NCBI GenBank assembly: GCA_030646995.1
Contig: JAUSKF010000002.1
Coordinates: 12,092-76,091 of the forward strand
Direction: 5' to 3'
Length of the DNA: 64,000 nt
Origin: a bacterium
GTDB taxonomy: Bacteria; Patescibacteriota; Minisyncoccia; UBA6257; WO2-44-18
Shown: positions 300 through 12,392 of the stretch, one piece after another
Position numbering within the stretch: position 1 is the first letter of the stretch
Layout of the letters: every line of letters starts with the position of its first letter
Made by a program: the position numbers and the translations under genes
The notes under the pieces: model-generated
What the model was told of the DNA's origin: nothing
Seen by the model: the letters and a program-made list of their open reading frames with translations, nothing else
Databases searched by the model: none

Positions 300-1562
300 A
301 TGACATTTCTCTGGTGCCTGCTTTTACTGCTGATTATCGCTCAATTGGCCGTGATTCCGTTCTGGCCGAGGATTGTACGGAAAGTAATTCGTCGCAGGCC
401 AGCCTCGTCGAGTCTAGGCGGGCCGACGCGGAAATTCTGGAATTTGGTTTTGAATGCCTCAATTTACGGAGTAGTGCTATTTTTTACCTTGATTCCGTTT
501 ATTCGGGTAAGTCTGATTATCGCTGTAGAATCGGCGGTTGTTGATAAAAAAGAGGCGCCTAGTGTGTATTTTAGCCATGAAAGCGAACGGTTTGTGGACA
601 TCCGCGGGCAGATTCATGTGCATTGTTATCTTTCACATGATTCAAAGGGAACTCTGGAGGAAATTACCGACGCTGCAGTAAAAAACGGTGTGCGCTGGAT
701 CATTCTCACCGACCACATCAGTAGGCTGCCCCCCGGCGATTACCCGGATCAACTTAACGGAGTTCTGTTGGTTTACGGATGTGAGCGGAATTATCTCGAA
801 GGAACTTCGGTCTTCCGAGCTTCGTTGAAAGATCAGAAAGAAACGCTTTACCTGCATGGACACGTCGAGAGTTTCAGCGGAGCCGCGGATTCAAAATGGA
901 TTTACCAAAAAGAGGATAAGGATCCGGTAATCCATTGGGACGCTCTAGAAGTGGTGAATTTTCACGCCAACGCGTTGGATAACAAGTTGGGTATTCTAGG
1001 CTCGGTATTTTTTTACCCAACTAGTTTGTACAACAATATCACCACTCTGATTCCCAGAAATTTTGACTATTGGCAGAAGCTGGCGGAGCGTGAAGGTCGG
1101 CCCATCCCAATTTTCGGAGCCCCCGACGCGCATCAGAACATAAAAATTCTGGGTGTGCAGGTTGATCCCTACGAGCTGACTCTCGGCCTCATCTCGACTC
1201 ACATCTGGATAGAGAAAGATGGCGAATTGAATCAAGATACTATTTTCGAAGCAATTAAAAAGGGGCGCAGCTACATTGCCTTTGATTATCTCGGGGATCC
1301 GACCGGATTTAAATTTTACGCGGAATCTCTGAAGAGTCGGTGTATGACTGGAGAATCAATGTCGGCGCCGAAATATCTTAGTGTTTGGGCGCCCGGCGAA
1401 GACTCATATGTCAAAACAAAATTCTATCGGGACAATGTATTTGTTGGTGAAGTGTCCGGTGGTCTGGCTTATATGCTCGATCCTCAGCCGGGATTTTGGC
1501 GTGTGGAGCTTTGGAAAGATGACCGCCCGTGGATTATCAGCGGGCAAATCCTTGTTAAGTAA
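300..1562 (+). CDS. PHP-domain (polymerase/histidinol-phosphatase-like) phosphoesterase with 2 N-terminal TM helices
   Basis: AGGAGG 8 nt upstream of ATG 300; HVHCYLSHDS…WIILTDH metal-binding His motifs typical of PHP domains; hydrophobic N-terminus. Confidence 0.55.
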   Translation: MTFLWCLLLLLIIAQLAVIPFWPRIVRKVIRRRPASSSLGGPTRKFWNLVLNASIYGVVLFFTLIPFIRVSLIIAVESAVVDKKEAPSVYFSHESERFVDIRGQIHVHCYLSHDSKGTLEEITDAAVKNGVRWIILTDHISRLPPGDYPDQLNGVLLVYGCERNYLEGTSVFRASLKDQKETLYLHGHVESFSGAADSKWIYQKEDKDPVIHWDALEVVNFHANALDNKLGILGSVFFYPTSLYNNITTLIPRNFDYWQKLAEREGRPIPIFGAPDAHQNIKILGVQVDPYELTLGLISTHIWIEKDGELNQDTIFEAIKKGRSYIAFDYLGDPTGFKFYAESLKSRCMTGESMSAPKYLSVWAPGEDSYVKTKFYRDNVFVGEVSGGLAYMLDPQPGFWRVELWKDDRPWIISGQILVK

Positions 1563-1624
1563 CCTCGACATTGTCGGGGTTTTTTATTACTCTATCTGCG
1601 TACTTTGAAAAAAGAGGAGGTAGG

Positions 1625-3430
1625 ATGAAGCGCTGGCTGAAGCGATTGGCGATTCCGGTTGCAGCACTTTTGGCGTTCGCCGGCGTGTATTACGCCGCGA
1701 ATTACAATACTGCCCGATACAATTTTGCGGTAGTGCAAGAAGGAAAGATTTACCGTTCCGGTTTGCCGGATGAAGCCTTTCTTGCCGAGATGGTTGAAAA
1801 AAGGAAAATCAAAACCATTATCAGTTTTTTGGGACGGCCGACAGATGACGAAAAAAAGCTTATTGAAACTCATGGAATCCGGGTTGTGAATATAAAAATG
1901 TATGTATCCAGAGATCCGACTGATGAGCAGATTGAACAGTTCCTTACATTAGTCAGCGACCCTGCAAATCAGCCGGTGCTGGTTCATTGCCGGGGCGGCG
2001 CGGACCGGACCGGTCTGATGATCGCTCTCAAGCGAGTACTGCATGACGGCTGGAGCTTGGAAGCGGCGGAAAAAGAGATGAGTTTCTACCGAAATCTTCC
2101 GCTGTTCACGCCGATGCCGCAGAGGAAACTCCGGCAGTACGTTTTGGAAAAATCGGTCGTGGATAAGCGCTGCGCCTACTCTAACAAGTCGGTGGGCAGT
2201 TTCCGGGCGGCGGCCGACAAAGAAGTGATCACACCGATCGGTCAGACGAATCTTGCGGGATTTTCTCCAAAGCGGCTGTCGCTGGGGGTTCATGATGATC
2301 TTTACGCGCGTTGCTTGATTTTGGAATGTCCTCACGGAGAAAAATTGGCGATTGTTTCACTGGATCTGGTGGGCTTCCTTCGTTATGACGTTCTAAAAGT
2401 TCGCGAAGAGCTTAGGAAAAAAGGAGTAATCCATCCGGATTCTTTGATTATTGTTTCCACTCATCAGCATGCCGGTCCGGATCCTATCGGAGTTTGGGGA
2501 AGATCTATTCCATTCGCCCCGCATCTATCAGGTTCCGGACGAGACGAAGAGTATCTTGCCTCGGTGCGCGCAAAGATCGTAAACCTCGTTGAGCGCTCAA
2601 CGAAGAAGCTGGAGAAAGCCGAGTTGTCGGTGATCCAAGCATCGGGCAAGGGATATTCCAAAAACGTTCGGATCAACGAAGATTTGGACACCTCACTAAT
2701 GGCTCTAGTAGCAAAGGGCGATAAGGGAGTGATCGGCACATTGGTGAACTTTGGAGTTCATCCGGAAACCTATCGGGACAAAAATCAGGTGATTACGGCC
2801 GATTTTCCGGGAGTGCTGGTTCAGAAAATGGAGGCCGAATTCGGTGGTACGTCGCTTTTCGTGAACGGACTCTGCGGAGCGATGGTTTCGGTCCGTACGA
2901 ACGACCTCAAGATCGAAAACCCGACCTATGAACAGCGCGCGGAAGCAGTGGGCGCCGGCTTGACCAAGCGTCTAGTTGAAGAAGCGATTAGCGTAAAACC
3001 GATTGATTGTTCCGGAGGATGTTTGCGGATTCGGAAAAAGCTGGTCAAGATCCCGCTGACTAATTTCGTGTTTCAGGAATGCGTGAAGTTGGGTGTCTTG
3101 CCGCACAACCGCGATACGATGACCGAAAAACAGGAAGCGATCACCGAAGTCGGGATCATCGACATTGGTGATCTGCGGATCCTGTTGGTACCCGGAGAGA
3201 TGCAGCCCGGATTCGGACTGAAGATCAAAGAGATGACCGGCGCCGATATGGTTTTTGGTCTCGCCAACGACGAGATTGGCTATATCATCGCCACTGAAGA
3301 GTTCTATCGGGTAATCGATCATCCCAAAAAAGGAAAAGTGGACGTTTACGCTTACGAGCGGACGATGTCGCTCGGTGAAGAAACCGGAAATAAGATATAC
3401 GAAGCATTCAAACAACTGGTAACCGAATAG
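1625..3430 (+). CDS. Fusion protein: N-terminal TM anchor + protein-tyrosine-phosphatase-like domain (CX5R) + neutral/alkaline-ceramidase-like hydrolase domain
   Basis: GGAGG RBS then ATG 1625 (the track start at 1571 is an upstream extension); VHCRGGADRTG matches the HCX5R(S/T) PTP P-loop; downstream part carries ADKEVITP…LAGF…GVHDDLYAR…STHQHAGPD, resembling the N-terminal block of neutral ceramidases. Confidence 0.6.
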   Translation: MKRWLKRLAIPVAALLAFAGVYYAANYNTARYNFAVVQEGKIYRSGLPDEAFLAEMVEKRKIKTIISFLGRPTDDEKKLIETHGIRVVNIKMYVSRDPTDEQIEQFLTLVSDPANQPVLVHCRGGADRTGLMIALKRVLHDGWSLEAAEKEMSFYRNLPLFTPMPQRKLRQYVLEKSVVDKRCAYSNKSVGSFRAAADKEVITPIGQTNLAGFSPKRLSLGVHDDLYARCLILECPHGEKLAIVSLDLVGFLRYDVLKVREELRKKGVIHPDSLIIVSTHQHAGPDPIGVWGRSIPFAPHLSGSGRDEEYLASVRAKIVNLVERSTKKLEKAELSVIQASGKGYSKNVRINEDLDTSLMALVAKGDKGVIGTLVNFGVHPETYRDKNQVITADFPGVLVQKMEAEFGGTSLFVNGLCGAMVSVRTNDLKIENPTYEQRAEAVGAGLTKRLVEEAISVKPIDCSGGCLRIRKKLVKIPLTNFVFQECVKLGVLPHNRDTMTEKQEAITEVGIIDIGDLRILLVPGEMQPGFGLKIKEMTGADMVFGLANDEIGYIIATEEFYRVIDHPKKGKVDVYAYERTMSLGEETGNKIYEAFKQLVTE

Positions 3431-3489
3431 GTTGCCAGTTTTTTATTTTTTCTGTATTGTATGGGGCAGAACGTTGAAAGGAACAAACG

Positions 3490-4341
3490 ATGAACATCTT
3501 CGGAGTCGCCGTGGAAGCGGTGTACGGCCTGATTTTAATGGTGATCGTTGCCGCTTTTGTGTTGGGTTGGAAGCCTAAATTTTCTCCAAAAAAATTCCAG
3601 CTCATTAGCGGAATTTTGATAGTGAGCAATCTTGTTCTCTTGGCTATTCTCAAAGAACAGGGAATGTACAATAGGACGTTTGCCTACTTGCTGGTCCCTC
3701 TCTTTTTGATCGGCATCGGCTACAAGCCGTTTTCAAACAAGCTGATGGTTTTTCTCGCTGGCTGGATGTGGCTTTGCCTTGAATTAGGGGTGGTGTATAG
3801 CAATTACGTCACCATGCTTTCGCTGGCGGTCATCCTGATTCCGGCTTTTCAATACTGGCGAAACTCCAAAGAAGAAGGATTCATCCGGACTAAAACCGCA
3901 GATTGGAGATTGATGCTAAACGTCTTCTTCTTTTTCCTAATCTCTACCTTCCTGGTGGCGGCAGCCGGCTGGGAAAGCGTGATGGTCGCCCAGTATCCCG
4001 GCAAACTCAAATGGATACCGCTGATTAGCATTATTCCGTTTTTCCTGGTGAAGGCGATTCCTGAAGAACTTGTTTTTCGTGGAATTTTTCAGGGAACGCT
4101 GAAAGACAAGTTCGGTTTCATCCCGGCCTTGATCGGTGCCTCGATGATTTACGGAATCGCTGCTATCAATAACCCGGCCGTTTGGGCTTTTCCCAACTGG
4201 CATGCAATGGTGAACGCGCTAGTCTTGGGGTTGGTCTGCGGATTCGTCTACAACAAAACTAAATCATTAGCTGTTTCGGGAGCGCTGAATGCTTCCGTTA
4301 GCTTTCTCTGGTGGATGTTGTTCGCGAACGGAGGACACTAA
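3490..4341 (+). CDS. CPBP-family intramembrane metalloprotease (CAAX protease/Abi-like)
   Basis: Multi-TM protein with all three CPBP motifs: EELVFRG (EExxxR), FPNWH (FxxxH), HAMVN (HxxxN). Confidence 0.7.
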   Translation: MNIFGVAVEAVYGLILMVIVAAFVLGWKPKFSPKKFQLISGILIVSNLVLLAILKEQGMYNRTFAYLLVPLFLIGIGYKPFSNKLMVFLAGWMWLCLELGVVYSNYVTMLSLAVILIPAFQYWRNSKEEGFIRTKTADWRLMLNVFFFFLISTFLVAAAGWESVMVAQYPGKLKWIPLISIIPFFLVKAIPEELVFRGIFQGTLKDKFGFIPALIGASMIYGIAAINNPAVWAFPNWHAMVNALVLGLVCGFVYNKTKSLAVSGALNASVSFLWWMLFANGGH

Positions 4342-5051
4342 TGAATAGGGTAAAATCCTGGGCGATAGCTGAAGTGGTTACTATTTTTGCGTTAGTGATG
4401 GTGGCCATCTGGTTTTTCCAAGAAAACTACGTCCCTTTTGTTGTGATACTAATCGCAATCGCGGGAGTGATGATTGTTAGTTCTGCGGTGCGGATGCGTG
4501 GCGTTAAAGTCGGGGACTATACTGAAACGCTCGGGCTTGGTTGCTTGGAGAAGAACGAGGATGGCCGCAATTACTTAAAGCTGGATTGCAGTTGGATCTG
4601 GAAGCTGGCGCTCCTGGCACTGCTCGGACTGACACTGATCCTGATCGCCGGATACTTCTTTAGGCCGGAGTTCTGGCTAGAGAGAAAATTCTGGCGAAAA
4701 ACGTTTTCCGGTGTTCAGGGCTATATTGTTTGGGGAGTGATCCAGCAATTTGTTCTGCACGCCGGAGTAACAAGCAGACTCTACTCGATCTTTGTTAAAA
4801 GTCCTGACCCGAAAAACTTTGAGAGAAGAGCCGCCCTGCTCACCGCCTTGGTGTCCGGAGTTCTGTTCTTTCTAGCGCACACTCCGAATCCAAAGCTGAT
4901 GATCGTGACTCCGATTGCCGGAGCAGCCACGGCTTACGTTTTTCTGAACTGCCGCAATGTCTGGATATTGGGCATCGCGCATGGGATTCTGGGAACGGCT
5001 GTCGAGCATTGTTTGCCCCTGAACATCAATGTCGGTCCTAATTATTGGTAG
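4341..5051 (+). CDS. Membrane protein, divergent CPBP-like paralogue (degenerate catalytic motifs)
   Basis: ATG 4341 overlaps the previous stop (TAATG); multi-TM; FFLAH (FxxxH) retained but motif 1 is QQFVLH instead of EExxxR. Confidence 0.45.
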   Translation: MNRVKSWAIAEVVTIFALVMVAIWFFQENYVPFVVILIAIAGVMIVSSAVRMRGVKVGDYTETLGLGCLEKNEDGRNYLKLDCSWIWKLALLALLGLTLILIAGYFFRPEFWLERKFWRKTFSGVQGYIVWGVIQQFVLHAGVTSRLYSIFVKSPDPKNFERRAALLTALVSGVLFFLAHTPNPKLMIVTPIAGAATAYVFLNCRNVWILGIAHGILGTAVEHCLPLNINVGPNYW

Positions 5052-5093: not shown

Positions 5094-5498
5094 ATGTCGG
5101 TGATGTTGCTGAAAATATTTGTTGTAGCTTTTTTAATCAATGTGATCTGGGAATTTTCCCATTGCTGGCTTTATGCAACCATTCAGAAAATGAAAGGAGA
5201 GGATATCGTGAAGTTACTTTTGAAAATGTCCGTTAAAGACGGGGTTTGGATATCAATATTTTATTTAATTACCTATGCGGTATTTCAGAATCTGAATCCT
5301 TGGGATAACTGGATGCAGGTGGCCATTTTTGCAGTGATCGCTCTGATGTTTGCTTTCATTGATGAAAAGATTTCCGTGACTATGGGCCGTTGGGAATATG
5401 GTCCGAAGATGCCGCTAGTTTATGGTGTCGGCCTTACTCCGCTCTTAGAATTGGCCGTGACCGGTCTATTGACTTTTTGGGTCGTGACCAGCTTTTAA
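5094..5498 (+). CDS. Small hypothetical membrane protein
   Basis: 134-aa ORF with 3-4 hydrophobic segments; no recognisable motif. Confidence 0.35.
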   Translation: MSVMLLKIFVVAFLINVIWEFSHCWLYATIQKMKGEDIVKLLLKMSVKDGVWISIFYLITYAVFQNLNPWDNWMQVAIFAVIALMFAFIDEKISVTMGRWEYGPKMPLVYGVGLTPLLELAVTGLLTFWVVTSF

Positions 5499-9091: not shown

Positions 9092-9598
9092 ATGAAATTG
9101 GAGGATCAATTCATAAAATTATACGACGATTTATCCGACGCAATTTTCCGGCATTGCTACTTTCGCGTATTTGAAAAGGAGCGCGCAAAGGAGCTGATGC
9201 AGGAGGTGTTCATCAAAACTTGGGAATATATGAAAAAAGGAGGGAAGATTGATAATCCTAAGGCCTTTCTCTATAAATCGGCGAATAACATAGTAATTGA
9301 TGAATCCCGTAAGAAAAAGGCGGCTTCGCTGGAGGCGATGGAAGAAACAGGATTTAATCCGGCCGATAACACTCACGAACGGCTGCTAAAATTTATCGAG
9401 GGCGGGGAGATGATCCGGCTTTTAAGAAAATTGGAGCCGAAGCACCGGCAGGCAATTTCAATGAAATATATAGACGACCTAGATATTAAAGAGATTGCGG
9501 AGGTGCTCGGAGAAACGGAAAATAACATCACCGTCCGAATCCATCGAGGCTTGAATCAGATAAGAGAAATTCTAAAAGAAAATGGAACAGAAATTTAA
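9092..9598 (+). CDS. ECF-type RNA polymerase sigma-70 family factor
   Basis: Region 2 (…FIKTWEYMKK…) and region 4 HTH (…DIKEIAEVLGETENNITVRIHRGLNQIR). Confidence 0.8.
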   Translation: MKLEDQFIKLYDDLSDAIFRHCYFRVFEKERAKELMQEVFIKTWEYMKKGGKIDNPKAFLYKSANNIVIDESRKKKAASLEAMEETGFNPADNTHERLLKFIEGGEMIRLLRKLEPKHRQAISMKYIDDLDIKEIAEVLGETENNITVRIHRGLNQIREILKENGTEI

Positions 9599-10412
9599 CG
9601 AAATAATTAAAAAAGCGAAAGAAATCCGGATGAAACCGGAAGAAAAATCCGATTTACGGGCGCGTCTTTATGCTGTGGCAAAAGGCGAAGCTGTAATGAG
9701 CGAGCCGGTTAGCCGTCAGGCCAATCAAAGGTCAGTAATTTTTAGATTTTTAAAACCCATGCCAATGTTTGCATCTTTGATGATTGCGCTGTTAGCCGGG
9801 GGAGGGGTCTCTTTCGCATCCGAAAATTCTTTACCGGGGGATATTTTATATCCGATTAAAGTGGGTATTAACGAGGAAATCCGCGCCAAGATCACCCTGT
9901 CCGCCGAAGCAAAGGCTGATTGGGAGGTCCGCAGAGCAGAGCGGAGACTTGAGGAGGCGGAAAAATTGTCCAACAATGGTGAGTTGGATGAGGAAAAGAA
10001 GGCCATAGTGGAAGCTAGATTTGAACAACACGCGGCTAAGGCAGGCCAGCAAGCGGAAAAAAGTGAGGAGCGTGCCTTGGTTAAAGCCAAAGCGAAATCT
10101 CTCGTGAAACTTGAAGCAGTGCTACAAAAGCACGGCCGAATTTTATCCCGTTTAGCAGAAAAAGACTCCATACAGGCCGCGGCTTCCATGAGAGTTGCCG
10201 CTGATGCAGATGTTCAAGCGGAAGCTCCAGTTCAGATTACCGATGACCAAGGTTCACAGGCGGTTCAAAATAAGATTGAGGAAGTTTCAAAATTTTTCTC
10301 CGCTGAAACCAGGGTGCCTGAAGAGTTCAAGGAAGAAATTCGCTATGAGGTAAAATCACTGCTTATACCGAAAAGGATTGAATCGAAAATTAAAGCGGGA
10401 ATAGAGTTGTAA
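9582..10412 (+). CDS. DUF5667-like protein (putative anti-sigma/partner of the ECF sigma), coiled-coil
   Basis: Overlaps sigma gene by 17 nt; TM segment then LPGDILYPIKVGINE… and coiled-coil; paralogue at 40758. Confidence 0.55.
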   Translation: MEQKFNEIIKKAKEIRMKPEEKSDLRARLYAVAKGEAVMSEPVSRQANQRSVIFRFLKPMPMFASLMIALLAGGGVSFASENSLPGDILYPIKVGINEEIRAKITLSAEAKADWEVRRAERRLEEAEKLSNNGELDEEKKAIVEARFEQHAAKAGQQAEKSEERALVKAKAKSLVKLEAVLQKHGRILSRLAEKDSIQAAASMRVAADADVQAEAPVQITDDQGSQAVQNKIEEVSKFFSAETRVPEEFKEEIRYEVKSLLIPKRIESKIKAGIEL

Positions 10413-10434
10413 GGGCGCTGCGTGCTATAATCAG

Positions 10435-10929
10435 GTGATGGTCAAGCATATTATTATTGCTTTGATGACGATTACTGTTGTGAATTGTGGCTCCGGGTTA
10501 GCTCTAGCTCATGGTTCCTTTGAATTGCCACTGGCTGGGTTAACTCCCTCTAATTTTTTCTATTTTCTCGATAGATTAGGCGAAACTCTTAGGGAGATTT
10601 TTGCTTTTAGTCCCGAAGCTAAAGTGAAATTACAGTTAAGCTTTGCCGCCGAACGGGTGGCGGAGCTGGAGTTAGAATTGGAGACGAATGGCGTAGAAGC
10701 AAAGGGCCTTGAGATAGCTCGCAATCGTCTTGCAGAACACATAGTGAGGGGCAATGAAATTATTCACGCAGAAATCGTGAAGGGGAGTGATATGGAAATG
10801 ATTTCTGAGGATTTTGACCATGATCTGAAAGAGCTCCTACAAAGAGCTGAGGAAGGTTCTGATGATTTAACCGCTGAGATAGAAAAAATGGAAGAGTTGT
10901 TGATGATTGAAGACGAGGGGCAAAAATAA
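10435..10929 (+). CDS. Hypothetical secreted/coiled-coil protein (short DUF5667-like)
   Basis: Signal-like N-terminus; LTPSNFFYFLDRLGE… loosely resembles the LPGDxLYPxK block; acidic C-terminus. Confidence 0.4.
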   Translation: MMVKHIIIALMTITVVNCGSGLALAHGSFELPLAGLTPSNFFYFLDRLGETLREIFAFSPEAKVKLQLSFAAERVAELELELETNGVEAKGLEIARNRLAEHIVRGNEIIHAEIVKGSDMEMISEDFDHDLKELLQRAEEGSDDLTAEIEKMEELLMIEDEGQK

Positions 10930-10968: not shown

Positions 10969-11042
10969 TGGGCCCGGAGGGAATCGAACCCTCAACCCGC
11001 AGATTATGAGTCCGCTGCTCTGACCTTTTGAGCTACGGGCCT
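10969..11042 (-). tRNA. tRNA-Met (anticodon CAT; A1·C72 mismatch)
   Basis: Reverse complement folds as a cloverleaf: D-arm tagctcaaaaggtcagagc, anticodon loop ctCATaa, T-arm gagggttcgattccctc, acceptor aggcccg/cgggccc. Confidence 0.8.
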
Positions 11043-11057
11043 ACATATTAAGAAGCA

Positions 11058-11127
11058 TGGGCGCAGTGGGAGTTGAACCCACATCTCCGGTGTACGACCG
11101 GATCCTGATAAGTTGGAAGATGCACCC
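11058..11127 (-). tRNA. tRNA-like sequence (non-canonical; possible anticodon GTA, or a pseudogene)
   Basis: Good acceptor (gggtgca/tgcgccc) and T-arm (gtgggttcaactcccac), but irregular D and variable regions; anticodon loop tcGTAca with C33. Confidence 0.35.
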
Positions 11128-11177: not shown

Positions 11178-11210
11178 GTACCAGACTTATAAAAAATAAA
11201 TAGAATGGTA
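11178..11210 (+). promoter_or_regulatory. GTACCAGACTTATA…ATGGTA motif (single copy) overlapping the M23 peptidase start codon
   Basis: gtaccagacttataaaaaataaatagaATGgta; same motif in three tandem copies at 48965-49078. Confidence 0.4.
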
Positions 11211-12392
11211 AGAAAAAGAATAATTCTGCTGGGCTTATTTTTGGGGATTGCCGCCGCTATTGTGGTTGCCCAAATTAAACCGGCCGGCCTTATCTTGGAT
11301 CCCTTACAAACAATTCGAATTTCTATCCCGACCGGAGCAACATTCATAGACGCAATGCGTTACCTGGGCGTAGCGACTTCTACCTCTCAATCTATTTTGA
11401 ATTCCGCTCAAGATAAATATAATCTGGCAAAGATTGTGAGCGGCCGGGAGCTGGCCCTTTCCTTCGATGTATTTTCCGGAGATTTAAAGAAAATGGTTTA
11501 TAAAATAGACGTTGATAATCAGTTAATCGTTGAAGACGCAGACTCGGAAGCTGATCCAGAAAATAAGTGGGGGGCAAAAGTTGAACCGATACCTTATGAA
11601 GTACGAGAGCGGTCAGGAGGAGGAGTAATTTCGAAATCATTATATCAAACCATTGTCAGCCAGGGCTTAGATGAGCGTTTAGCGCTGGCGCTAGCGGAGG
11701 CCTTTGCTTGGCAGATAGATTTTGCCACAGATATTCAAGAAGACGACAGTTTCAAAGTTGTCTACGAAGAGCGCTATCTGGATGGAAGATATGTCATGCC
11801 GGGAAGGATCATGGCGGCGAGCTTTATCAATGCGGGCGAATCCTTCAAGGGATATTATTTTGAGGGAACTGAGAAAACTCGCGCCGGTCATTATGATGAG
11901 AACGGCGGGGCTCTGCAGAAAGAATTTTTAAAATCTCCGCTTCAGTATAAATATATCAGCTCCGGATACTCTTTGGCGCGCTATAATCCGATTACCAAAA
12001 AAACATCACCGCATCGCGGCATTGATTATGCCGCTCCATCCGGCACACCCGCGGTTTCCGTTGGCGACGGCACAGTTACCCAGGCCGGCTGGAATGGTTA
12101 CTACGGGATTTCGGTTACTGTACGTCATAACGACACGTATAAAACGGTCTATGGTCATTTTTCTCGCCTAGCCAAGGGGATTAAGGTTGGCGCGAAAGTG
12201 AGTCAGGGTCAGGTTGTCGGCTATGTGGGCTCAACCGGGCTTTCCACAGGCCCCCACCTGCATTATGAAATGCATAAATTCAGTTCTTATGTGAATCCTT
12301 TCAAGGTAGAAATTCCACCGGGCGATCCGGTGAACGAGATGGATCGCGCAGCTTTTGAAAAAGTTGTAAGTAAATATTCGGGAAGCATATAA
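11205..12392 (+). CDS. M23 family metallopeptidase (murein DD-endopeptidase-like)
   Basis: HRGIDYAAPSGTPAVSVGDGTV…GHFSRL…VGYVGSTGLSTGPHLHYEM (HxxxD / HxH M23 motifs); N-terminal TM anchor. Confidence 0.85.
   Translation: MVRKRIILLGLFLGIAAAIVVAQIKPAGLILDPLQTIRISIPTGATFIDAMRYLGVATSTSQSILNSAQDKYNLAKIVSGRELALSFDVFSGDLKKMVYKIDVDNQLIVEDADSEADPENKWGAKVEPIPYEVRERSGGGVISKSLYQTIVSQGLDERLALALAEAFAWQIDFATDIQEDDSFKVVYEERYLDGRYVMPGRIMAASFINAGESFKGYYFEGTEKTRAGHYDENGGALQKEFLKSPLQYKYISSGYSLARYNPITKKTSPHRGIDYAAPSGTPAVSVGDGTVTQAGWNGYYGISVTVRHNDTYKTVYGHFSRLAKGIKVGAKVSQGQVVGYVGSTGLSTGPHLHYEMHKFSSYVNPFKVEIPPGDPVNEMDRAAFEKVVSKYSGSI

Follow-up and report, generated by a model that had tools for sequence, protein, structure and literature searches.

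Neutral ceramidases, such as PaCD/CerN of Pseudomonas aeruginosa (2zws, 2zxc) and human ASAH2 (4wgk), depend on zinc (Zn) ligands and catalytic residues that have been described previously, including His196, Arg257 and Tyr591 in human numbering (PMC6952831). In P. aeruginosa, the genes of this enzyme and of a secreted phosphoesterase form the conditional operon cerN-plcH(-plcR), with a terminator between them, and CerN and PlcH (phospholipase C/sphingomyelinase) act in sequence on a phospho-sphingolipid. Cysteine phosphatases of the dual-specificity phosphatase (DSP) fold include TpbA, which is periplasmic (PMC4409338), and the PTPMT1-type enzymes, which act on lipid head-group phosphate at the membrane surface; a bacterial phosphatidylglycerophosphate phosphatase of this fold has been reported in Rhodopirellula baltica (PMC3576122). 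In this study, we analyse a gene from a stretch of 64,000 nucleotides of a very small groundwater bacterium of the Patescibacteria, or candidate phyla radiation (CPR), located at positions 12,092 to 76,091 of contig JAUSKF010000002.1 and hereafter called the window. One protein encoded there joins a transmembrane (TM) anchor, a phosphatase and a domain of the neutral ceramidase superfamily (Table 1). We slightly favour the view that it is an exofacial two-step hydrolase which, together with a neighbouring PHP phosphoesterase, would dephosphorylate and N-deacylate an amphiphilic molecule of the envelope or of a host.

An original prediction, made from the letters of the DNA without database searches, had described a membrane-anchored CX5R phosphatase fused to a neutral-ceramidase-like domain. 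This fusion is genuine: both domains score above their Pfam cut-offs and are recognised by Foldseek in an AlphaFold2 (AF2) model, and the same architecture occurs in 12 sequence clusters (one of them partial) with 58-100% identity, which were retrieved by a word-indexed search of NCBI, ENA and Logan assemblies from different samples. The motifs quoted at that time (ITP, LAGF, GVHDDLYAR, STHQHAGPD and the P-loop HCRGGADRTG) are all present, where the prediction had located them. Given that the same open reading frame (ORF) is found in independent assemblies, an assembly or frameshift artefact was ruled out. The single uninterrupted ORF extends from 1571 to 3430 on the forward strand, and the ATG at 1625 was taken as the real start since the sequence GAGGAGG lies 4 nt upstream and a common M-[KR]-R start is found in 11 of 11 aligned homologues. 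The resulting product of 601 aa is identical to NCBI protein MDO8466608.1, from a 162-kb contig of a metagenome-assembled genome (MAG). Its only strongly hydrophobic segment, residues 7-27, is preceded by four K/R residues; in the AF2 model (predicted local distance difference test, pLDDT, 92.1; predicted template-modelling score, pTM, 0.91) residues 3-26 form one helix, separated from the DSP fold by only about 8 residues. The inter-domain segment is conserved across the 11 aligned fusion proteins and lies between two invariant motifs specific to the fusion, TPMPxRKLRxY on its upstream and AADK on its downstream side. No further copies of either domain were found elsewhere in the window.

The N-terminal half matched Pfam Y_phosphatase2 over residues 32-155 (E = 3.7e-17, 62.8 bits against a cut-off of 27). 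Its best sequence matches in the PDB were TpbA (E = 7e-12) and Siw14 (8e-11), together with Arabidopsis PFA-DSP1, and Foldseek assigned this part of the model to the DSP fold, with Siw14, AtPFA-DSP1 and TpbA at 1e-7 to 1e-8. The target-normalised template-modelling scores were 0.66-0.78 for Siw14, At1g05000 and AtPFA-DSP1 and 0.61-0.70 for the TpbA chains, and the root-mean-square deviation of the best chains was 2.3-2.8 Å. The fusion protein shares the DSP fold, the HCX5R(T/S)G loop with its nucleophilic Cys and Arg, and a general-acid loop with TpbA (4r0s, 2m3v) and Siw14/PFA-DSP (6byf, 7mod), all of them Y_phosphatase2 proteins. It differs from them in being TM-anchored and joined to an amidase, and identity is 24-28%. 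Seven residues in and around the P-loop (H121, C122, G125, D127, R128, T129 and G130) are invariant in all 11 fusion proteins. This loop, CRGGADR, carries an invariant Asp before the Arg and lacks the Lys and His of the polyphosphate-binding PFA-DSP loops (CNRGKHR in Siw14), therefore the domain was not classed as a Siw14-type inositol-pyrophosphate phosphatase.

It had also been considered that a phosphatase without its general-acid loop would be a non-catalytic domain. The loop is present as SRDPTDE and aligns with that of TpbA, which holds three Asp (D105, D108 and D109) and in which the change D105A costs only about half of the catalytic efficiency (PMC4409338). In the fusion proteins, P98 is invariant and D100, the candidate general acid, is Asp in 10 of 11 sequences and Asn in the other. 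The position of this residue is displaced with respect to TpbA D105, as D100 aligns with the D108/D109 region while D97, which stands beside D105, is variable. The phosphatase active site is predicted to be intact.

The C-terminal half matched Pfam Ceramidase_alk (PF04734) over residues 202-409 (E = 3.4e-14, 52.8 bits against a cut-off of 32.1), covering positions 11-233 of the 509 in the profile; this family is prone to truncated ("unbounded partial") Pfam alignments (PMC4443539). A family profile was built from 61 homologues and used both for alignment to PDB chains and for residue conservation. It spanned the whole catalytic domain of the P. aeruginosa enzyme (2zws, chain residues 6-486, E = 2.2e-32) and of the human one (4wgk, chain residues 6-521, E = 6.2e-29). 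The same structures were the best Foldseek matches (3.6e-24 for 2zws and 1e-22 for 4wgk, both with probability 1.00), and 2zxc was found as well. These matches place the second half in the neutral ceramidase superfamily and not among unrelated metallohydrolases, the outcome that would have spoken against the original prediction. The domain has the fold of PaCD/CerN and ASAH2, and its four Zn ligands (H, H, E and Y), the second His of HxH, the catalytic Arg and the second catalytic Tyr correspond to theirs, with no more than 15-17% identity in structural alignment. The Zn ligands of the ceramidase half and the Cys and Arg of the phosphatase half being conserved, as the prediction had asked to be verified, a pseudo-enzyme or non-catalytic reading was rejected, and both domains are predicted to be active.

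The ceramidase-like domain has about 410 aa compared with about 480-515 aa in the solved enzymes, a shortness that had been attributed to the loss of a C-terminal tail. This explains only a part of it. The Ig-like C-terminal domain is indeed absent, as the protein ends at the equivalent of about residue 486 of the 646 of the PaCD chain and 521 of the 688 of the human chain, but about 70-100 residues of internal inserts present in PaCD and ASAH2 are missing too. They comprise the human 358-387 subdomain, the human 451-487 eta2-alpha8 element and about 57 residues of PaCD, and both human segments have been named as elements of the substrate pocket (PMC6952831). On the side of the fusion protein there is a VHDD motif, which is specific to a compact subfamily of these proteins. 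Databases label the members of this subfamily "ceramidase N-terminal domain-containing" despite their complete catalytic domain; judged from the alignments, the second half of the fusion is likewise a complete but compact catalytic domain and no N-terminal fragment.

The missing inserts bear on a literal sphingolipid catabolism, in which the DSP domain would dephosphorylate host ceramide-1-phosphate or a sphingoid-base phosphate and a true ceramidase would free sphingosine and fatty acid. The full catalytic set of neutral ceramidases is conserved, and the type-II topology predicted for the fusion protein matches that established for human neutral ceramidase, with an extracellular catalytic domain behind an N-terminal signal anchor. 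In addition, the cerN-plcH operon is a precedent for pairing a phosphoesterase with a ceramidase, and the adjoining PHP phosphoesterase could perform the first (phosphodiesterase) step. That operon differs from the locus studied here in several respects, since PlcH is unrelated to PHP or DSP proteins, the two enzymes are separate secreted proteins, CerN is full-length and there are no CPBP partners. Moreover, the pocket-associated inserts are absent, the neighbourhood contains no ceramide-related gene, and the compact subfamily is widespread in organisms without a known sphingolipid link, archaea included. No enzyme of the DSP fold is known to dephosphorylate ceramide-1-phosphate. We consider this explanation quite improbable, and nothing in the analysis supports the host sphingolipid phosphates originally suggested as substrates.

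The rarity of the architecture was surveyed by an exhaustive HMMER scan of 1.84 billion representatives at 50% identity. Only one of them (P0010) spans both domains (query residues 11-600), and the remaining top matches were stand-alone or tandem compact ceramidase-like proteins and two stand-alone anchored DSPs (P0140, P0164). The literature searched for ceramidases in Patescibacteria/CPR, for ceramidases with the rhodanese-phosphatase superfamily and for DSP fusions contained nothing relevant, a DSP fusion being unreported. The combination, which had already seemed unfamiliar from the sequence, is a new one of known enzyme kinds, rare in its architecture and undescribed in that literature. 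The fusion carriers are named Patescibacteria or Parcubacteria group by their sources, in agreement with the reduced-genome organism initially supposed, and a metagenome scan added at least one further fusion locus, L096, from a third Hainich groundwater well. In a neighbour-joining tree of the ceramidase-like domain, 11 fusions and the stand-alone protein P0013 formed one clade in 100 of 100 bootstraps. Since P0013 is nested inside it, one fusion event followed by one loss or fission would account for the tree, which indicates that the fusion arose once, in a clade of the Patescibacteria/Parcubacteria type.

A point not contemplated in the original prediction is that the fusion belongs to a recurrent module with a PHP phosphoesterase gene and two CPBP/Rce1-like genes. 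The order of the window (PHP, fusion, CPBP1, CPBP2) is also that of the orthologous loci L001-L005 and L096, at 63-65% identity. Across the loci compared, genes of the PHP, DSP, ceramidase-like and CPBP families lie together in 10 or more different orders (Table 1), and split DSP and ceramidase-like genes adjoin each other in L007 and L097. The fusion would have brought together two genes that elsewhere stand side by side, unfused, in this envelope module. Because the linkage is kept through rearrangement and through both the split and the fused states of the DSP-amidase pair, there is good comparative evidence that these activities work together. Two lineage-specific insertions into the module were noted in the orthologous loci. 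A gene for a 428-aa protein separates the fusion from CPBP1 in L001-L003 (9986-11272), and one for a 163-aa protein lies after the PHP gene and before the fusion in L004 (5059-5550); neither has a Pfam or NCBIfam match.

The PHP partner is called hypothetical by NCBI in the window (Q7S83_00510). Its set of PHP metal-binding motifs is complete, with H106, H108, D114, H139, E162, D276 and H278 unchanged among 40 homologues, and its best fold match is the PHP phosphoesterase TM0559. The homologues P0218-P0258 form about 40 clusters at 37% identity or more and are named, where a name is given, Patescibacteria or Parcubacteria. A resemblance of its C-terminal beta-sandwich to the lipid-binding proteins PDE6D, RhoGDI and Unc119 (Foldseek E ~1e-2, template-modelling scores 0.28-0.34) was too weak and was left unused. 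None of the PADLOC models matched the PHP protein, the fusion, CPBP1, CPBP2 or the 134-aa protein encoded downstream, and the PHROG match was to a generic DSP only; an origin in a defence system, toxin immunity or a phage was consequently dropped.

With respect to membrane orientation, the fusion protein is predicted to face outward because its single N-terminal anchor follows a positive-inside KRxxKR N-terminus, because most of its homologues carry export signals or anchors and because periplasmic TpbA sets a precedent. The stand-alone CPR-type ceramidase-like proteins have lipoprotein signal peptides (lipoboxes LISC, VLGC and ISGC), the stand-alone DSPs carry the same TM anchor as the fusion, and signal peptides or anchors are found in most of the wider ceramidase-like family, archaeal members included. 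An extracytoplasmic position would be common to TpbA and to the DSP of the fusion, and the ceramidase-like domain would be exported or outward-facing like PaCD and ASAH2. The PHP partner contains a basic loop between its two TM helices, therefore its catalytic domain is predicted outside. An outward-facing PHP phosphoesterase seems unusual. That all the catalytic parts of the module face outward is well supported, as a prediction.

At every DSP locus, with the DSP fused or free (the window, L001, L004, L007, L008, L092, L096 and L097), a CPBP gene adjoins it. This adjacency would also be expected of a TpbA-like regulatory phosphatase acting on exofacial phospho-Tyr, phospho-Ser or phospho-Thr of a membrane protein, perhaps CPBP or the amidase itself, in which case the amidase would be independent and the fusion would only co-localise the two. 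TpbA, the best PDB sequence match, is in fact a periplasmic phosphatase that works on the periplasmic domain of a membrane protein. In the loci compared, the module includes no kinase, and where extracellular protein phosphorylation would come from in a monoderm CPR cell seems unclear. Additionally, the high pTM value and the invariance of the inter-domain motifs point to two domains fixed in one unit and not to a loose tether, and we hold a regulatory role to be very unlikely.

Of all the neighbours of the two halves, CPBP genes are the most constant, and at least three non-CPR metagenome contigs (L135, L152 and L154) also have one beside a ceramidase-like gene. Such constancy could reflect the maturation or release of lipid-anchored proteins, in which CPBP/Rce1-like proteases would cut beside a lipidated residue and the amidase and phosphatases would remodel or remove a lipid-phosphate anchor. 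CPBP1 is weakly similar to C-terminal-sorting proteases of the MrtP/MrtS/MrtJ type (NCBIfam E = 1e-4 to 4e-4), but these matches lie far below the family cut-offs and no proteins with sorting signals emerged as candidate substrates. The function of CPBP proteins in bacteria is heterogeneous, which counts against this possibility as well, and it appears highly improbable, the least likely of those weighed here. Among the matches listed, the only non-CPR pairing of PHP and ceramidase-like genes was in L009 (6781-10584), a Syntrophobacterales MAG, where two ceramidase-like paralogues stand in tandem downstream of a PHP-like gene. All three encode signal peptides, and the vicinity also contains a TldD/PmbA-like gene and one for a lipoprotein-type alpha/beta-hydrolase.

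The compact subfamily comprised 245 representatives at E<=1e-30 in the exhaustive HMMER search. Among the matches listed there were Armatimonadota, Chloroflexota, Planctomycetota, Acidobacteriota, Verrucomicrobiota, Bacteroidia, Myxococcota and archaeal MAGs. Besides the DSP fusion, its architectures include stand-alone domains, tandem duplications, a C-terminal SCP2 domain, tandem-plus-SCP2 forms, a DUF1028 fusion and an FG-GAP/VCBS fusion. In P0027, P0028, P0032, P0034 and P0074, the compact domain is followed by an SCP2/Alkyl_sulf_C-type lipid-binding domain, one tandem-plus-SCP2 protein reaching 952 aa, while in P0169 an N-terminal DUF1028 domain precedes it.

Ceramidase-like members without signal peptides were observed in Chloroflexota-type MAGs (L023, L024, L025, L027, L029, L044, L050, L052, L056 and L060), and most of these loci adjoin genes for GFO/IDH/MocA, a DegT-type aminotransferase, GH4, MFS_2, an ABC sugar transporter and Fe-ADH_2. 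Their context suggests that this subgroup may be an N-acyl or N-acetyl amino-sugar deacylase. It is also relevant to a processing of envelope glycopolymers or cell-wall precursors, in which the amidase would take N-acetyl or N-acyl groups off amino sugars and the DSP would remove phosphate or pyrophosphate; undecaprenyl pyrophosphate and the sugar-phosphate linkage units of wall polymers are possible targets. Such a role would fit the sugar transporters and the genes for GH4, GFO/IDH/MocA and DegT aminotransferase in the amino-sugar-type clusters. It would also fit the cleavage of phosphoanhydride bonds by PFA-DSP relatives, as described in the 6byf and 7mo* entries, the position of the DSP active site near the membrane, where lipid-pyrophosphate carriers are located, and the existence of the DUF1028 fusion. 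As an indication of the substrate of the CPR enzyme, however, the sugar clusters were down-weighted, given that their homologues lack export signals and are probably cytoplasmic, unlike the exported CPR proteins. The SCP2 fusions point to hydrophobic ligands, and no cell-wall synthesis genes are conserved beside the module in the loci compared. We regard glycopolymer processing as rather unlikely.

Returning to stepwise hydrolysis of an amphiphilic molecule, we envisage a single-pass, outward-facing protein that would hold two hydrolases beside the membrane surface. The first would be a cysteine-dependent phosphatase of the TpbA/PFA-DSP (Y_phosphatase2) type and the second a zinc-dependent amidohydrolase with the catalytic machinery of neutral ceramidases in a compact form. 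Their substrate would be a molecule of the membrane surface with a phosphate and an amide-linked acyl group, and it would be dismantled in steps: the head group with its phosphate would be trimmed or taken off by the PHP enzyme, the DSP domain or both, and the ceramidase-like domain would cleave the N-acyl amide to give a fatty acid and an amine. Candidate substrates could be ceramide phosphates or sphingophospholipids, other N-acyl phospholipids, and lipid-A-like or lipid-linked glycoconjugates, either from the host or from the bacterium's own envelope. That the domains act in sequence on a single substrate, and that this substrate is a lipid, are our inferences. An amphiphilic or lipid substrate is suggested by the membrane tethering of all components of the module, by the independent fusions of SCP2 lipid-binding domains to the same compact domain, and by the sole characterised relatives in the family, which are N-acyl lipid amidases. 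A role on lipids is further supported by the precedents of the cerN-plcH operon and of a DSP-fold lipid-phosphate phosphatase (PMC3576122). The PTPMT1-type enzymes differ from the fusion in that they belong to another DSP subfamily, no PTPMT1 assignment being obtained at the sequence level, and in that they act on the cytoplasmic or matrix side.

It must be considered that several observations weigh against this proposal. The nearest solved DSP relatives work on phosphotyrosine (TpbA) or inositol pyrophosphates (Siw14, PFA-DSP) and not on lipids, and the inserts missing from the ceramidase-like domain belong to the pocket. The compact subfamily occurs in many lineages, archaeal MAGs among them, with no known ceramide synthesis, and the literature searched for biochemical or substrate data on its members contained none. 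The amino-sugar-type clusters of the cytoplasmic Chloroflexota subgroup imply that the fold is not tied to lipids. In the module itself, PHP and CPBP genes occur without phosphatase or amidase in L090, and PHP occurs alone in L089 and L091. Finally, terminator-like hairpins stand on both sides of the fusion gene, so that any co-transcription with the neighbours is only putative. These hairpins are the strongest terminator-like sites of the first 6.5 kb, in which the total number of such sites is not above that of shuffled sequence.

Table 1. Features of the fusion gene and its neighbours in the window, and gene orders of related loci (cer-like, ceramidase-like gene).
Feature	Position (nt)	Strand	Residues	Remarks
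PHP-like membrane protein	300..1562	+		Conserved upstream partner; 2 TM helices, PHP-family metal phosphoesterase domain, C-terminal beta-sandwich
Terminator-like hairpin and T-run	1561..1581	+		Between PHP gene and fusion gene
Shine-Dalgarno GAGGAGG	1614..1620	+		4 nt 5' of ATG 1625
Fusion gene	1625..3430	+	601 aa plus stop	TM anchor, DSP phosphatase, linker, compact neutral-ceramidase-like Zn hydrolase; MDO8466608.1
N-terminal TM/signal-anchor helix	1643..1705	+	7-27	After MKRWLKR; N-in, C-out predicted (hydropathy)
DSP/Y_phosphatase2-type Cys phosphatase domain	1718..2152	+	32-176	Pfam, PDB search, Foldseek
General-acid loop SRDPTDE	1907..1927	+	95-101	D100, candidate general acid
P-loop HCRGGADRTG	1985..2014	+	121-130	
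Inter-domain linker	2153..2197	+	177-191	Conservation and AF2
Compact neutral-ceramidase-superfamily catalytic domain	2198..3427	+	192-601	Without Ig-like C-terminal domain
STHQHAGPD, Zn ligand	2456..2482	+	H280	Human H194, PaCD H97; kept in 61/61
STHQHAGPD, catalytic His	2456..2482	+	H282	Human H196, PaCD H99; kept in 61/61
SKNVR, catalytic Arg	2657..2671	+	R349	PaCD R160 exact, human R257 within one position; 49/61, His in 7
NFGVHPE, Zn ligand	2747..2767	+	H379	Human H303, PaCD H204; kept in 61/61
PGEMQ, Zn ligand	3191..3205	+	E525	Human E540, PaCD E411; kept in 60/61
LANDEIGYII, Zn ligand/catalytic Tyr	3260..3289	+	Y553	Human Y579, PaCD Y448; kept in 61/61
DVYAYERTM, second catalytic Tyr	3341..3367	+	Y577	Human Y591, PaCD Y460; kept in 53/61
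Terminator-like hairpin and T-run	3414..3440	+		11 bp stem; overlaps fusion stop codon
CPBP1	3490..4341	+		Conserved downstream partner; Rce1-like/CAAX-protease-family intramembrane protein
CPBP2	4341..5051	+		Second Rce1-like protein; translationally coupled to CPBP1 (TAATG overlap, GGAGGA upstream)
L006				PHP, cer-like
L007, L097				DSP divergent from cer-like, then CPBP
L008				CPBP2, CPBP1, then divergent DSP, then convergent PHP
L090				PHP, CPBP1, CPBP2
L092				CPBP genes, then divergent DSP
L093				cer-like, PHP, CPBP
L094				PHP, cer-like, CPBP
L095				CPBP1, CPBP2, cer-like

Some other traits of the surroundings were recorded. The hairpins flanking the fusion gene resemble the leaky terminator between cerN and plcH of P. 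aeruginosa. Immediately after CPBP2 the window encodes the above-mentioned 134-aa protein (5094-5498, forward strand), which is a multi-pass membrane protein with no Pfam, NCBIfam or PADLOC match. Further on, 9092-10929 on the forward strand encodes an ECF-type sigma factor (Sigma70_r2/r4) and, after it, two DUF5667 proteins, two tRNA genes lie on the opposite strand at 10969-11127, and an M23 peptidase with a Csd3-like domain follows at 11205-12392 on the forward strand. In the CPR-type contigs L089, L090 and L095, genes for a small SPW-domain protein, a glutaredoxin and a Pyr_redox_2 (thioredoxin-reductase-like) protein are found downstream, with an FAD-linked oxidase next in L090 and L095, and DsbA or DsbA/DsbB genes are found upstream in L004, L005 and L090. 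These neighbouring genes may provide a redox link to exported Cys enzymes.

Patescibacteria (CPR) generally lack de novo lipid synthesis. The fusion gene is a concrete candidate for a part in the lipid supply of these ultra-small bacteria and in their contact with the host envelope. In a more specific version, unlikely in our estimation, a line composed of the PHP phosphodiesterase, the DSP phosphomonoesterase and the compact ceramidase-type N-deacylase, alongside the CPBP intramembrane proteins, would strip N-acylated phospholipids or glycolipids of the host or of neighbouring cells down to fatty acid, phosphate and amine. If this were true, it would constitute a dedicated lipid-scavenging pathway for organisms unable to make fatty acids, with the phosphatase-amidase fusion as its most derived form. 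The ectodomain of the fusion should be expressible in soluble form and has two active sites that can be mutated (C122; H280, H282, E525 and Y553), which would make it a tractable handle on the processing of envelope or host lipids. Beyond these organisms, knowing what a single member of the compact subfamily acts on would lead to the re-annotation of thousands of proteins.

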